Source of the DNA: Pseudomonadota bacterium
GTDB taxonomy: Bacteria; Pseudomonadota; Alphaproteobacteria; Sphingomonadales; Sphingomonadaceae
Length of the DNA: 64,000 nucleotides
Direction of reading: 5' to 3'
Assembly: GCA_039814925.1 (NCBI GenBank)
Contig: JBCCAH010000010.1
Span: 21,606 to 85,605, forward strand
Part shown: positions 6,802 through 11,751 of the stretch, piece after piece
How the letters are laid out: each line of letters starts with the position of its first letter
Numbering within the stretch: the stretch's first letter is position 1
Made by a program: the position numbers and the translations under genes
The notes under the pieces: generated by a model
What the model saw: only the letters and a program-made list of their open reading frames with translations
Told to the model about the DNA's origin: nothing
The model's database searches: none

Positions 6802-7016
6802 TTTTCCTACTCGCCCCGCCTCCGCTACGCTGCGCCCGGCTCTTTTTCATCGTTGGTCCGGCCTGACAGATCGCTGTTCAGAACCTCTCCCATTGGCCCT
6901 AGCCGAGGGCGAAAGAGAGTTGGAGAAGTGTCAAGCGGCTCTCTGGAGACACATTCCAATAATATCAGCGGGTTATCGCAGTCTCCTCTGCTTGACACCT
7001 GCCAAATGTGTCAAGC
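6802..7016 (+). repeat. Non-coding dispersed element, copy A
   Basis: TTTTCCTAC 6802-6810; TTGGAGAAGTGTCAAGC 6920-6936; AATAATATCAGCGGGTTA 6958-6975; perfect IR GCTTGACAC-N9-GTGTCAAGC 6990-7016. Confidence 0.65.
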
Positions 7017-7026
7017 AAATCGGCGC

Positions 7027-7647
7027 TTAAGGAGCGACCCAGCGGCCTAGCCAACCGTCATCCCCATCGCGGGAAAACTGCGCGCGAGCGTGACCGGTGT
7101 GAGCGAGATACAGCCAGTCGAGCTCGTTCAAGGTGATACGCAGCACCGCAAAGTTGTCGCGAGCGGGCACGAGTTGCTCGTCCGTTGGCTCAACACCCTC
7201 CAACTCAGCCGGTAAGCCCGAAGTGGGCGCGTCCGAGGCCGCCCCCGGGCTCTCGCCCATGTAACACCGGCGGGCAAAGTTGCTGCCATTGTCCCATGCG
7301 GTGTCCGTCACCGGTGCATCACGCAAGATCTCAGCGATGCCGCGCACGCGGATCTGGATCTTGGCGCCCTTGTCGTAAAACAGCACGGCGACGCGCGGGT
7401 CCGCTTCAATCGGGGCCACCTTGGGCGCGCGGGTGTCGGTGTGGAAACGCAAGGTCCAAGCCTGGCTGTCAAACTCGCGCAAGACCATGGTGCGCGCATC
7501 CACATCGCTGGTGATCACCGCCGGCGTGTGCATTGGCACCTTGCGGTCCTTCGCGGCGCGAATCAGGCGGTTGGTCAGGTCGGTGCGAACTTCATCAAGA
7601 TCTTCAAACATGGGCAGCGATGTGGCCTTGGGAGGGTGAAAGAACAA
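7027..7647 (-). CDS. Pyridoxamine 5'-phosphate oxidase-family FMN-binding protein
   Basis: ARTMVLREFD, FHTDTRAPKV, VAVLFYD, QIRVRG, ELDWLYL; a start at ATG 7611 is also possible. Confidence 0.8.
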   Translation of the reverse strand: MFFHPPKATSLPMFEDLDEVRTDLTNRLIRAAKDRKVPMHTPAVITSDVDARTMVLREFDSQAWTLRFHTDTRAPKVAPIEADPRVAVLFYDKGAKIQIRVRGIAEILRDAPVTDTAWDNGSNFARRCYMGESPGAASDAPTSGLPAELEGVEPTDEQLVPARDNFAVLRITLNELDWLYLAHTGHARAQFSRDGDDGWLGRWVAP

Positions 7648-7808
7648 GCTTCGGGCGGAAAAATCGGCCCAAACCCGTCGTTCATAAAAATAAATGTTTA
7701 GATTAACGACTTCCTGACAGACCGGTTAAGTTTGGCGACAGTCTGAGCTTGGTAACAGAACGTATCAACCAAGTCGCAGGTGGTGGGGCGGCAACACTGG
7801 AGGCATTT

Positions 7809-8996
7809 ATGGATATTACCCAGTTGCTCAGGGGCACCGCGCTCTCGGCCATCGCCGCCGCGCTCGCCCTTGTCATCACCCCAACCGAAGCGGAGGCTGC
7901 AACCAGCGCTTCGGCCACCGCATCGAGCGAGAATTCGGCGGCCGAACAACCGCGCGAACGCCGCGCCAATCGCCAGCGGGCGCCATCGAACAATCGCGGC
8001 AATCGTCAGCGGACTCGCCAGAACAACCGCGCTCGCAATGTCGGCGCGGTGCGCAGCGAGATCAATCGAGGCGAGCGGCGCGCAAACCGTGTCGAACGCC
8101 GAAGCGTCAATCGCGCCAATCGCGTTGACCGTCGTAGCGATAACCGCGCGAACCGCGTGGATCGCCGCAGTGGAAACAGCGCAAACCGTGTCGAACGTCG
8201 CGGTGACAATCGTGCGAACCGGCTTGAACGGCAGGGCCGCGATCGGGCCGCCAACCGGGTCGACCGGCGCAGCGATAATCGGGCGGGCCGCATTGAGCGC
8301 CGTGGCGATAACCGCGCCAACCGCGTTGAACGTCGCGGTGGCAACCGGGCGAACCGGATCGAGCGGCGCGAGACCCTGCGCGGCGACCGGTGGGTGAACC
8401 GTCAGAACACAGTCCGCGGTGACCGCCGCTCCGACCGCCGGGTCGATCGCGCGACACAGCGTCGCTTTGACCGTCAGGCTGATCGGCGCGCTGATCGCAG
8501 GGGCGACCGCCGCGTGGATCGCGCAAACCGTCGGGGCTTCCGCGATGGTGTGCGGGCTGAACGTCGCGGCAACCGCGCCGAAAACCGCCGCATTCGCAAC
8601 CGGGCCGAACGTCGCGGTTTCCGCAACGGAGTGCGCGCCGGCCAACGCGTAGGCAATCGCGGTTTTCGCAACGGCAATTTCCGTCGCTGGGACCGCAGAG
8701 GCTGGCGCAATAATCGCCGGTTTGGCTGGCGCGACTTCCGCCGCGCCAATCGCGGGCTCTTCCGCCTCGGCCGTTATTACGCCCCGTTCCGTGGGCACTT
8801 CTATCGGCCCATCGGTATCGGGTTCTTCCTCGACAGCGTGTTCTTCCAACCGCGCTTCTTCATCAACGACCCATGGGCGTACCGCCTGCCGCCGGTCTAC
8901 GGACCCTATCGCTGGGTTCGCTATTACGATGACGTGCTTCTGGTCGATATCTACACCGGCGAAGTCGTGGACGAGATCCGCAACTTCTTCTGGTAG
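7809..8996 (+). CDS. RcnB-family exported protein with long Arg/Asn/Asp-rich repeat region
   Basis: Signal peptide; C-terminal YRLPPVYGPYRWVRYYDDVLLVDIYTGEVVDEI is typical of RcnB; ATG 7809 with GGAGG RBS. Confidence 0.85.
   Translation: MDITQLLRGTALSAIAAALALVITPTEAEAATSASATASSENSAAEQPRERRANRQRAPSNNRGNRQRTRQNNRARNVGAVRSEINRGERRANRVERRSVNRANRVDRRSDNRANRVDRRSGNSANRVERRGDNRANRLERQGRDRAANRVDRRSDNRAGRIERRGDNRANRVERRGGNRANRIERRETLRGDRWVNRQNTVRGDRRSDRRVDRATQRRFDRQADRRADRRGDRRVDRANRRGFRDGVRAERRGNRAENRRIRNRAERRGFRNGVRAGQRVGNRGFRNGNFRRWDRRGWRNNRRFGWRDFRRANRGLFRLGRYYAPFRGHFYRPIGIGFFLDSVFFQPRFFINDPWAYRLPPVYGPYRWVRYYDDVLLVDIYTGEVVDEIRNFFW
8076..8375 (+). repeat. Nine tandem 33-bp (11-aa) coding repeats, consensus NRANRVERRGD
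   Basis: RRANRVERRSV/NRANRVDRRSD/NRANRVDRRSG/NSANRVERRGD/NRANRLERQGR/DRAANRVDRRSD/NRAGRIERRGD/NRANRVERRGG/NRANRIERRET. Confidence 0.9.
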
Positions 8997-9028
8997 ACCC
9001 AACGGGCTCCTGAAAGAACCTCACAAAC

Positions 9029-9759: not shown

Positions 9760-9798
9760 GGCATGATGCCCGCTGTAGGAAAATAGATTCCTCCTTTT

Positions 9799-9876
9799 GT
9801 GAGTCCCCGCGCAGGCGGGGACCTCTTTCAGTTGAGCGCTAAGCCGATGGAGGTCCCCGCCTTCGCGGGGACCCAC
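9799..9876 (+). repeat. 78-bp REP-like double-palindrome element between convergent genes
   Basis: GTCCCCGCGCAGGCGGGGAC and GTCCCCGCCTTCGCGGGGAC hairpins joined by a spacer; second copy at 50321-50398. Confidence 0.88.
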
Positions 9877-9883
9877 CGAGAAT

Positions 9884-11494
9884 TTAAGCCCCCGCCAACG
9901 CTTCCGCGATCAATTTGCGTGTGGGTTCAACACCATACAGCTTGATAAAGCTGCCCATGCGCGGGCCTTGTTCGCTTCCCAGCAGCGTTTCGTATTGCGC
10001 GCGGAACCAGTCGCGCAAGCTCTCGAACCCGTAGGCTTCGACCTTGCCGATTTCGTAGACCATGGTTTGCAGATCTTCGGCGCTCGCATCGGCGGGCGCT
10101 TGGGATAGCCGCGCGTCGAGGTCTTTGAGCGCTTCAATCTCTCCGCCCACCGGCGCGCGTTTTTTCAGCGTCGGCGCTAGAAAATCGCGGTTGTAGTTCA
10201 CCGCGCTCTCAATCAGCGTCAGCAGCACCGGATCGGTCACCGGCTGTCCGGTGTAGCTCGCGACATATTCGGCAAGGTTTTCCGGCGTCGCTTCAAGACC
10301 CAGCACAGACACGAGGTTGAGCAGCAGCGAGTACGGGACGCTCAAGGCGTCGCCCGCGCCCGGCGCTTCGGGCGTATCGATCCGCTCGTTCGCGCGCAGC
10401 AAGTGCCACACCGCGTTGCCTAGCTGTTTGTCGAGAGGTTGGTCGGCCAGACGCTCCCGGAACTGCCAGTAATCGTCGATCGCCTTCGGGATGACGCCCG
10501 CGTGCAATTGCTTTGCGCTCTTGGGGTTGGCGAAGATGTAGAAGCCCAGGCTTTCTTCCGAACCATAGGTCAGCCACTCCTCGATTGAGAGGCCGTTGCC
10601 CTTCGACTTGGAAATCTTGCCGCCTTCCGCGTCGAGGAACATCTCGTAGATCAGGCCCTCGGGCTTTTTACCGCCCAGAACGCGCGCGATTTTGCCCGAT
10701 TGCACGCCGCTGTCGGTCAAATCCTTGCCGTACATTTCATAATCGACGCCAAGCGCCACCCAGCGCATCGCCCAATCGACCTTCCACTGGCACTTGGATA
10801 GGCCGGAAAGCGCCGATTGCTCGACCACGCTGCCGTCTTCGTCGGTGAAGCGGATGATGCCTTCGGCGGCGTCGACAACCTCAATCGGCACTTGCAGCAC
10901 CGCACCCGTCGACGGGCTGACCGGCATGACCGGCGAATAGGTCTTGCGCCGTTCTTCGCCCAAGGTCGGCAGCATGATGTCCATGATCGCGTCAAAGTTC
11001 GTCAGCACCCCTCGCAGCGCGTCGTCAAACGCGCCCGAATTGTAACGGTCGGACGAGCTGACGAATTCGTAGTCGAACCCAAAGCGATCCAGAAACTCGC
11101 GCAGCATGGCGTTGTTATGGGCGGAGAAACTTTCGTGATCGGTGTCGAACGGATTGGGCACGCGCGACAAAGGCTTGTGCAGGTTCGCTTCGAGCAATTC
11201 CTGATTGGGCACATTGCCCGGCACTTTGCGCAAGCCGTCCATATCATCGCTGAACGCGACGAGGCGCGTGGGCTGCCCGGTCAGCGCTTCGTAGGCGCGC
11301 CGCACCAGCGAGGTTCTAAGGACCTCTTGGAAGGTGCCGATATGCGGCAGGCCCGAGGGACCATAGCCCGTTTCGAACAGCACCGGCTCGCCATTGGGTT
11401 TGCCGCCCTTCAGCCGTTTGGCCAGACGCTGGGCTTCCTGAAAGGGCCAGGCCTTGGAGTTTTGTGCGGCTTCGAGAAGGGTTTGATCTGTCAT
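9884..11494 (-). CDS. lysS: Lysine--tRNA ligase, class I
   Basis: ETGYGPSGLPHIGT (HIGH), DDMDGLRKVP, GKISKSKG (KMSKS), GPRMGSF. Confidence 0.96.
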   Translation of the reverse strand: MTDQTLLEAAQNSKAWPFQEAQRLAKRLKGGKPNGEPVLFETGYGPSGLPHIGTFQEVLRTSLVRRAYEALTGQPTRLVAFSDDMDGLRKVPGNVPNQELLEANLHKPLSRVPNPFDTDHESFSAHNNAMLREFLDRFGFDYEFVSSSDRYNSGAFDDALRGVLTNFDAIMDIMLPTLGEERRKTYSPVMPVSPSTGAVLQVPIEVVDAAEGIIRFTDEDGSVVEQSALSGLSKCQWKVDWAMRWVALGVDYEMYGKDLTDSGVQSGKIARVLGGKKPEGLIYEMFLDAEGGKISKSKGNGLSIEEWLTYGSEESLGFYIFANPKSAKQLHAGVIPKAIDDYWQFRERLADQPLDKQLGNAVWHLLRANERIDTPEAPGAGDALSVPYSLLLNLVSVLGLEATPENLAEYVASYTGQPVTDPVLLTLIESAVNYNRDFLAPTLKKRAPVGGEIEALKDLDARLSQAPADASAEDLQTMVYEIGKVEAYGFESLRDWFRAQYETLLGSEQGPRMGSFIKLYGVEPTRKLIAEALAGA

Positions 11495-11561
11495 AGTGAG
11501 GGGGTCTTTATTCTTCGGTTGCTGTGTTGCAAGCGCGAAGACGCGTTTCGGTTTCCAAAAA

Positions 11562-11751
11562 TTTCCTACCCGCTTGACAGTGTCAAGCGCCTGTCAAGCG
11601 CTCAAATCGAGCTTAAAATACTGATAAACATTGTTTTTATGGCAACTTCGCTGGCTTGACACTTGTCCAACACGAAACGCTTTTCGACAATTCATTCGGT
11701 TTACCTCTACGCCGGGGTGAGACCCTAGCCAGACCGCGCTGATGTAGGAAA
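11562..11751 (-). repeat. Non-coding dispersed element, copy B (inverted relative to copy A)
   Basis: TTTCCTAC 11562-11569 and GTAGGAAA 11744-11751 as terminal IR; perfect IR GCTTGACAG-N10-CTGTCAAGC 11572-11599; CTGATA 11621-11626; GCTTGACACTTGTCCAA 11654-11670. Confidence 0.65.

Follow-up and report, generated by a model that had tools for sequence, protein, structure and literature searches.

Two intergenic elements, copies A and B, in a 64-kb stretch of the draft genome G000 (the window, C8:21606-85605; genome size 3.80 Mb, 60% G+C) are members of an undescribed family of mosaic intergenic repeats, ~190-230 bp in length, that occurs in some Erythrobacter-group bacteria. They represent two of the 14 copies in this genome, all of which are intergenic. 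The element is neither an att site nor a marker of gene acquisition. The reading preferred here, to which about an even chance is given, is that it is an orphan mosaic repeat of the BIME, RIME or Correia kind whose array of one plus three sites is maintained by the host as a putative protein-binding platform. Small interspersed repeats of alphaproteobacteria outside the Rhizobiales are almost undescribed. Neither the Rfam 15 covariance models (no relevant match at E <= 1 for loci of the present family, (a), or of the sibling families (b) and (c)) nor a literature search by motif or topic, which returned nothing relevant on such elements in Sphingomonadales, identified the family with an already described repeat.

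Architecture of the repeat unit

All seven TGTCAAGC octamers in the 64-kb window lie inside the copy A and copy B loci, and 43 of the 85 in the G000 genome group into 14 clusters with a common order and spacing: a direct TGTCAAGC, 60-74 nt, an inverted site, 9-19 nt and a direct site. An nhmmer profile built on the 38-nt left box and run against the G000 genome returned exactly the same 14 loci (E <= 4e-5), the next match having E = 0.5. Single TGTCAAGC octamers outside the elements number 42, fewer than composition predicts (98 expected genome-wide, elements included). The earlier note had proposed, from A and B, a multi-copy family in which the order of the boxes is conserved and their spacing is restricted, and this is borne out by the 12 further copies with the same spacing in G000 and by others in related genomes.

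The ordered motifs and spacings described for A and B were all found by reading and alignment (Table 1). TTTTCCTAC at 6802-6810 in copy A corresponds to the reverse complement of TTTCCTAC at 11744-11751 in copy B, and TTGGAGAAGTGTCAAGC at 6920-6936 pairs with TTGGACAAGTGTCAAGC at 11670-11654. From this box to TATCAG there are 26 nt in A and 27 nt in B, followed in both by exactly 21 nt to GCTTGACAC-N9-GTGTCAAGC in A and to GCTTGACAG in B. The inverted repeat proposed for copy B, GCTTGACAG-N10-CTGTCAAGC, is present as sequence but is described more tightly as two tandem inverted arms with a compact GCTTGACA-C-TGTCAAGC palindrome, and the 'compensatory C/G swap' attributed to it is a by-product of these nested arms. 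The GC-rich end of copy A abuts the stop codon (7027-7029) of a convergent PNPOx-like gene, while the ends of copy B, whose ortholog in the sister genome G044 is L047, are perfect 8-bp terminal inverted repeats, TTTCCTAC/GTAGGAAA.

Table 1. Copies A and B part by part, the lysK promoter-like site and the sibling families (positions refer to the window).
Feature	Position	Strand	Sequence or composition	Remarks
Copy A, whole	6803-7026	+	head TTTCCTAC to GC-rich end	ortholog in sister genome G044
Copy A, head box	6803-6810	+	TTTCCTAC	-35 position relative to -10-like GCTACG at 6824-6829
Copy A, recurrent GGCTCTTTGAAAT box	6838-6852	+	GGCTCTTTTTCATCG	~35 nt past head
Copy A, left box	6909-6936	+	GCGAAAGAGAGTTGGAGAAGTGTCAAGC	one direct TGTCAAGC site
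Copy A, spacer	6937-6989	+	53 nt, AT-rich	IHF-consensus match TATCAGCGGGTTA at 6963-6975
Copy A, right box	6990-7016	+	GCTTGACAC-CTGCCAAAT-GTGTCAAGC	inverted arm, degenerate middle slot, direct arm
Copy B, whole	11562-11751	-	TTTCCTAC (11744-11751) to inverted GTAGGAAA (11562-11569)	
Copy B, left box	11654-11681	-	GCGTTTCGTGTTGGACAAGTGTCAAGC	
Copy B, spacer	11600-11653	-	54 nt, AT-rich	IHF-consensus match TATCAGTATTTTA at 11614-11626
Copy B, right box	11572-11599	-	GCTTGACA-GGC-GCTTGACA-C-TGTCAAGC	two inverted arms, one direct arm
Native lysK promoter-like site	11505-11533	-	CTTGCA-N17-TAAAGA	11 nt before ATG at 11494; outside element
Family (b)			CGAAAGGTGACAC (inverted TGTCACCTT), ~65 nt, ACTTTYGCAAAA-N10-GTGTGGTCCA	upstream of pyrH, ruvA, ppdK, others
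Family (c)			TAGGACCGTGTAACACGTGGTCCATGTCTC	19 G000 copies, all outside window; usually ~110 nt past T(T/G)TCCTAC head
Family (d)			TGTCGCCTT arrays, same left-spacer-right plan	three loci seen, one upstream of prfA

Across the family, the unit runs from a head, TTTCCTAC, through 60-110 variable nt to a left box, an AT-rich spacer, a three-slot right box and a tail. The head, exact in 12 of the 14 G000 copies, precedes the left box there by 61-116 nt, and of 35 copies from other genomes 30 likewise have it ahead of that box; it is preceded by a GC-rich ...GGCGC and followed after 14-15 nt by a -10-like CTA. A GGCTCTTTGAAAT box is often found within the variable region (many copies, several genomes), and the consensus of the left box is (GCGAAAGCGA)GTTGGAnAAGTGTCAAGC. 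The spacer is fixed in length and free in sequence: it measures 51-55 nt in most of 53 copies and 64-65 nt in four, with a mean AT content of 57% versus 40% for the genome. In 12 G000 copies the left site stands 79-83 nt away from the last right site, in the remaining two 69 nt, and the DNA 3' of the left box tends toward complementarity with it (mean z = -0.8).

In the right box the slots lie ~0, 11 and 20 nt apart. The first holds an inverted GCTTGACA and the last a direct TGTCAAGC; the middle one is empty or is filled by either another inverted arm or a degenerate direct TGTCAAATG. The box is a palindrome with 8-13-bp arms in 13 of the 14 G000 copies; the inter-arm distance is 1, 3, 5, 9 or 11 nt depending on the copy, and the arms co-vary (GG..CC vs GC..GC). 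Several copies finish with GTAGGAAA, the inverted head, and others with ACTTTCGCAAAG, a frequent second promoter-like box that resembles the head. Terminal inverted repeats of the type TTTCCTAC...GTAGGAAA, with one mismatch allowed, are found in 5-6 of the 14 G000 copies and in none of those of Qipengyuania sp. ASV99.

The earlier note had placed a central TATCAG among the shared motifs, which does not extend to the family: the IHF consensus WATCAR-N4-TTR matches in only 4 of 53 spacers, copies A and B included. An IHF site is not a family feature, though it is enriched over shuffles (mean 0.08). Several other identities for the boxes were considered and rejected. As sigma70 promoters they contain TTGACA with no -10 at 16-18 nt on either strand, and the promoter scan gave one weak CTGTCA-17-TAAAAT in copy B; as sigma54 -24/-12 elements, their GG...GC spacing, judged by eye, is off by one. 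The boxes bear what we take to be a partial resemblance to matS and to the DnaA box, but copies in G011 are not confined to one chromosomal region, while those described here lie near parS/lysK.

Distribution, insertion and sequence constraint

An exact scan for the element architecture over 185,579 species genomes found ~17 copies in Qipengyuania sp. ASV99, 14 in the sister MAG G044, seven in the Erythrobacter MAG OZ245896, five in Altererythrobacter xiamenensis and a few singletons. The copies in G044 are orthologous to all 14 in G000, with one substitution in the ortholog of copy A. Matches outside the Erythrobacteraceae had no right box and were discarded as chance. The architecture occurs 0-3 times in 22 other congeners, most of which have none, and the left-box pattern was seen among 41 relatives only in G000 (14) and in one other of 24 congeners (two copies). 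The family is patchy, with 5-17 copies in a few Erythrobacter, Qipengyuania and Altererythrobacter genomes. Three of 13 ASV99 copies checked are at loci common to G000 and the remainder are elsewhere; a few of the OZ245896 and A. xiamenensis copies are also at G000-shared loci, the others elsewhere.

The junction of the BCKDH E1beta and E2 genes shows that the unit arrived by insertion, in agreement with the earlier proposal of a non-autonomous inserted element. The gap between these genes is 4-8 nt in 11 congeners and 233 nt, with a complete element, in G000; in G012 it is 223 nt and holds a variant element with left and right boxes of TGTCAACTT/TGTCACCTT instead of TGTCAAGC. Two features of the G000 insert, noted by eye, weakly favour an event of the transposition type: its right end is a diverged repeat of the E1beta-end AAGGACTGA, a possible target duplication of ~9-15 nt, and its ends match each other as an imperfect inverted repeat over the outermost 10 nt, TGACCGGCGC / GCGCCTGACA. 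At the PNPOx and lysK loci, relatives have broken synteny or another family member in place, and no second clean empty site was found. A different insert of 274 nt occupies the same E1beta-E2 junction in G005 (L059), where ~23-bp perfect terminal inverted repeats (GGACCTTGCCTCTGGTAGCCAAA...) mark a classical MITE.

Searches for an enzyme that might mobilise the element were negative in G000. No Y1/HUH protein (PF01797) was found in G000, G044, G042, G043 or G041, control genomes being positive, so that the search for the cognate HUH transposase suggested earlier came back empty and RAYT/IS200-type mobilisation was rejected for G000. IstB (PF01695) was absent from G000 and the other element-rich genomes, which discounts an IS21-type parent with multiple terminal repeats. 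The rve domain (PF00665) had no match in G000 or G041 and one match each in G042, G043 and G044, and any rve-type DDE enzyme was dismissed as mobiliser on its absence from G000. Furthermore, no longer parent with matching extended inverted repeats was found across 0.6-9 kb in G000, and TGTCAACTT was missing from the rve-family IS loci retrieved from G011. A phage origin was likewise rejected, the viral collection having given one chance match.

Comparison of orthologous copies in G000 and G044 revealed very uneven constraint. Mean identity is highest in the left box (97%), followed by the right box (28 nt; 87%), the head-to-left region (82%), the 60 nt downstream (81%) and the spacer (69.5%). 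The copy A spacer is ~60-62% identical to its G044 ortholog between flanks of 85-96%, and the spacers of A, B and C11:5897 are unusually diverged between the sister species. No spacer inversion was seen, as orthologous G000/G044 spacers align forward only, and inversion or exchange between loci was rejected because the best matches are orthologous and forward, with one possible conversion in which the L048 spacer resembles that of a C10 copy. Boxes that stay intact around a spacer drifting at fixed length, with no transposases found, point to a trans-acting host factor. The multi-site protein binding proposed earlier fits boxes that evolve far more slowly than the spacer, although biased gene conversion between copies could in part be an alternative cause of box conservation.

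It is possible, though unlikely, that the copies are purely selfish: decaying MITE-like elements whose boxes are former transposase-binding sites (TGT...ACA-type ends, subterminal repeats), spread by an enzyme now lost or supplied in trans, with no gain to the host. Insertion polymorphism at E1beta-E2 would be expected of such elements, as would patchy, lineage-specific bursts of 8-23 copies, each with a genome-specific box variant, and they would also account for the 8-bp terminal inverted repeats TTTCCTAC/GTAGGAAA of copy B and ~6 of the 14 copies, for the possible target duplication and 10-bp terminal inverted repeats read by eye at E1beta-E2, and for the box of sibling family (c) that lies in frame inside two genes. 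However, G000 lacks Y1/HUH, IstB and rve genes as well as any longer element whose extended inverted repeats match, the G011 rve-family IS loci do not carry TGTCAACTT, and all 14 copies are kept at orthologous sites in the sister species. Moreover, a neutral MITE that had spread recently would show the reverse of the highly diverged interiors and intact boxes seen here.

Sibling families and genomic neighbourhood

The head is not restricted to the family. TTTCCTAC occurs 88 times in G000, 81 of them outside long open frames and many 30-60 nt before a start codon, and averaging over the 88 sites gives a TA peak at +23/+24. The promoters of the tRNA genes (TTGACA-N17-CTAnnG), in which TTTCCTAC is never used, have the same register. 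From these positions we infer that the head is promoter-like, with TTTCCTAC taking the place of a -35 box ahead of a CTA-type -10; ACTTTCGCAAAA-N10-GTGGTCCA may be a further putative promoter-like box. At least three paralogous HTH proteins (C3:58038-58754, C19 and C27; L143-L145), weakly similar to the Sf6 terminase small subunit, each have TTTCCTAC 30-60 nt ahead of the start codon. The head is also conserved in front of this gene in distant Erythrobacteraceae; homologs from Altererythrobacter lutimaris, Porphyrobacter sp. HT-58-2 and a metagenome contig have it. These paralogs are candidates for head-binding, autoregulated proteins and the family may be related to the head; as element-specific factors they were rejected, being ubiquitous in the Erythrobacteraceae, in contrast to the patchy TGTCAAGC family.

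Sibling families carry the same head with other 9-mers, namely TGTCACCTT, TGTCGCCTT and TGTCAACTT, other genomes included. Family (b) (loci L094-L110 in G000, e.g. C9:42988-43467 and C19:7006-7485) has its head ~100 nt before CGAAAGGTGACAC and a right box of ACTTTYGCAAAA-N10-GTGTGGTCCA or GTGTAACAC that resembles a second TTTCCTAC-class promoter; the family is found 20-140 nt before core genes, among them pyrH, ruvA, ppdK and the 3-hydroxyisobutyrate dehydrogenase gene. Family (c) is found at C3:227563, C11:175694, C12:157547, C21:69246, C23:131629, C27:21784 and 13 more sites, with two copies in frame within genes for a GH24 lysozyme-like protein (C4) and a terminase-like HTH protein (C27). 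Its box recurs in 22 copies in G006 and 18 in G009 as a species-specific variant (…CATGCGG…) in which hairpin pairing is kept only through G-U, on the sense strand. The family (d) loci (C13:126546-127025, C20:29808-30287, C21:10317-10796) combine AAGGCGACA-CAC-TGTCGCCTT-TGTCGCCTT with an AT-rich spacer, and the palindrome fits GCGNC-N5-GNCGC, which we take to be a RegA/PrrA-type consensus. Tandems of TGTCAACTT number 23 in G011 and eight in G012, with none in G000.

Different families replace one another at the same intergenic loci across species. The site upstream of lysK holds family (a) in G000, (b) in G006, the TGTCAACTT type in G011 and the TGTAAACTT type in G010; that upstream of ppdK holds (b) in G000 and the TGTCAACTT type in G023; and the 3' side of the PNPOx-like gene holds (a) in G000, a (c)-like element in G014 and a (b)-like element in G015. 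Box sequence also changes in concert between species at one locus, as with the left and right boxes at E1beta-E2 in G000 and G012.

The genes beside the 14 copies are mostly core (lysK, rplK, BCKDH E2, hpf, rbfA, thiSG, cobB) and show no functional theme. Six copies lie upstream of genes in the same orientation (lysK, rplK, E2, hpf and the genes for an amidohydrolase and a saccharopine-dehydrogenase-like protein), on the head side of three others there is a divergent gene, and the rest face 3' ends; seven of the 14 are directed toward a convergent gene's 3' end. Orientation showed no bias with respect to GC skew or replication (6:4, 9:8, 5:4). A link to the acquisition of accessory genes, suggested by the earlier note, finds no support, as the neighbours are mostly core and the lysK-to-PNPOx block is syntenic in relatives without the element. 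Its question whether copies mark the boundaries of variable genes is answered in part, A and B both being at synteny break-points, but no accessory-gene theme runs across the family.

The PNPOx-like gene whose 3' end copy A faces is conserved in the genus; the head side of the copy borders a hypothetical gene that most relatives lack. The window segment 5342-6702, between the ABC-F and PNPOx-like genes in G000 and G044, comprises a 248-aa ORF (+) and a 174-aa hypothetical gene (-), where congeners have a GGDEF-like gene or none; copy A lies at the edge of this variable segment. Elsewhere in the window, BLAST against the sister genome detected diverged tandem-like repeats (73-80% identity, shifted) at 8077-8370, within the 434-aa ORF at 7698-9002, and another TTTTCCTAC head lies at 9775-9783 (-), adjoining a REP-like palindrome (9799-9876); this head, which has none of the (a)-(d) boxes with it, is directed toward the 3' end of a 2OG-Fe(II) oxygenase gene.

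Copy B lies upstream of the gene for class I lysyl-tRNA synthetase (lysK), where GCGCTTGCAA is conserved in relatives of the genus with or without the element. From copy B to the start codon of lysK run ~65 nt (window 11495-11561) that are 99-100% identical to the sister genome, far above adjacent intergenic DNA; they may constitute a conserved promoter or leader. Upstream of lysK, parS-like sites, TGTTTCACGT(G/A)AA(A/G)CA, were seen at L075 (G007), L077 (G003) and L079 (G005), each adjoined by runs of CCCCCTCTAGA-type short repeats; the parS-like sites suggest that the lysK region is origin-proximal.

An RNA element is a distinctly improbable explanation for these families. The TTTCCTAC/-10 head would be the promoter of a ~150-200-nt transcript, either an sRNA or a 5' leader, acting through two hairpins, one from the left box and one from the right-box palindrome. 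The head is indeed promoter-like, families (b) and (c) almost always aim at a downstream gene 120-290 nt off, the (c) box folds as a hairpin that, in its species-specific variants, stays paired only via G-U when read as the sense strand, that strand has modestly lower z-scores for folding (mean ~-1.9 vs -1.4) and the palindrome arms co-vary. But the left-box hairpin is found in only about a quarter of copies, palindromes of the N1 type are incapable of a full hairpin loop, no terminator follows the right box, Rfam has no match for (a), (b) or (c), and the spacer is constrained in length, not sequence.

A putative binding platform and its known counterparts

In a host-maintained platform, the four TGTCAAGC-type sites (one left, up to three right) would be docking positions for one DNA-binding protein encoded elsewhere. 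The AT-rich spacer, held at 51-55 bp, would permit a bend in the DNA, either intrinsic or imposed by IHF or HU, which would join the left site and the right palindrome in one nucleoprotein complex, and the whole element might serve as a portable upstream promoter/operator or insulator cassette between genes, a reading drawn from the promoter-like head and the similar tail box. Protein binding, DNA bending or looping and a promoter role for the head are all deduced from sequence. Several observations count against such a platform: no single regulatory logic fits all copies, since half of them point toward convergent 3' ends, the flanking genes share no theme, lysK retains its own conserved promoter downstream of copy B, and few spacers (4 of 53) match the strict IHF consensus. 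Arm co-variation and left-box complementarity could also be explained without protein, by a hairpin or by palindrome correction through template switching.

An active site for site-specific recombination or synapsis, whether att-like, an invertible segment or a pair of transposon ends, is the least supported alternative and very improbable. It draws on the inverted TGTCAAGC/GCTTGACA pair around a 52-54-bp segment, the IHF-consensus matches in A and B and the unusual spacer divergence between the sisters at A, B and C11:5897, and is opposed by orthologous spacers that align forward only with no inversion signal, by the lack of any gene of the three transposase families screened (Y1/HUH, IstB and rve), by the absence of orientation bias relative to GC skew and by the core, syntenic nature of the A-B block. 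The att-like core and arm sites proposed by the earlier note find no support, the same 8-9-mer being used at all sites; with arms spaced N1, N3 or N9-11, a recombinase core is unlikely, as it would not tolerate such variation, and an att-, dif- or lox-like core with a fixed 6-8-bp centre was rejected on the same 1-11-nt range.

The platform reading has a more speculative extension, for which the chances are slim: an 'addressable' system in which fast-evolving DNA-binding proteins, one or a few per genome, would co-evolve with 8-23 dispersed 1+3 arrays. Their specificities would be TGTCAAGC, TGTCAACTT, TGTAAACTT, TGTCGCCTT and TGTCACCTT, and the arrays would fold around the bendable spacer. If true, this would be an unrecognised class of chromosomal landmark or portable operator, and it may tie to the TTTCCTAC promoter class and the terminase-like HTH paralogs in a cos/pac-like, phage-free arrangement.

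Three properties of the family are unusual: a strictly conserved promoter-like 8-mer head common to several families, an identical 8-9-mer array of fixed geometry that is intact in genomes without transposases (those screened), and box sequences that shift in concert between species, even in same-locus copies. If a protein binds the array, it would offer a tractable DNA-binding specificity co-evolving with dozens of dispersed sites, and a source of portable promoter/operator cassettes near lysK, rplK, BCKDH E2 and ppdK. If nothing binds, this is still a new repeat family that annotators should mask, and one for which in-frame insertion into genes is possible.

The closest parallels are with other mosaic repeats. 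Like the BIME-1/RIP elements of E. coli, the family is extragenic and interspersed, a mosaic of short palindromic units ~100-200 bp long as a whole that lies between genes and at 3' ends, and an IHF-consensus site lies between units in some copies. Unlike them, it has no RAYT (Y1) gene, its left unit is not palindromic, it numbers tens rather than hundreds of copies, the IHF match is confined to 4 of 53 spacers and the promoter-like TTTCCTAC head has no counterpart in BIMEs. With RIME and similar alphaproteobacterial mosaics it shares an intergenic location, modular palindromes in varied order and a patchy distribution across species, whereas its modules are 9-mer arrays that differ by genome and no sequence relation was seen via Rfam or the literature.

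The Correia elements (NEMIS) of Neisseria are also small non-autonomous inserts with promoter-like sequences, found beside genes without a resident transposase, and their long forms have a central IHF site. However, they have 26-bp terminal inverted repeats, a TA target duplication and conserved interiors, whereas here the inverted repeats are at most 8-10 bp, in some copies only, and the interiors are highly diverged. In layout, the element recalls lambda cosB (R3-I1-R2-R1), the arm and core sites of attP and the sigma54 UAS-IHF-promoter arrangement, each with a distal site, a bendable or IHF-bound region of fixed length and a cluster of two to three sites that the same protein recognises; those are single loci with a known enzyme or activator, whereas the element described here is a dispersed family of 14 copies.
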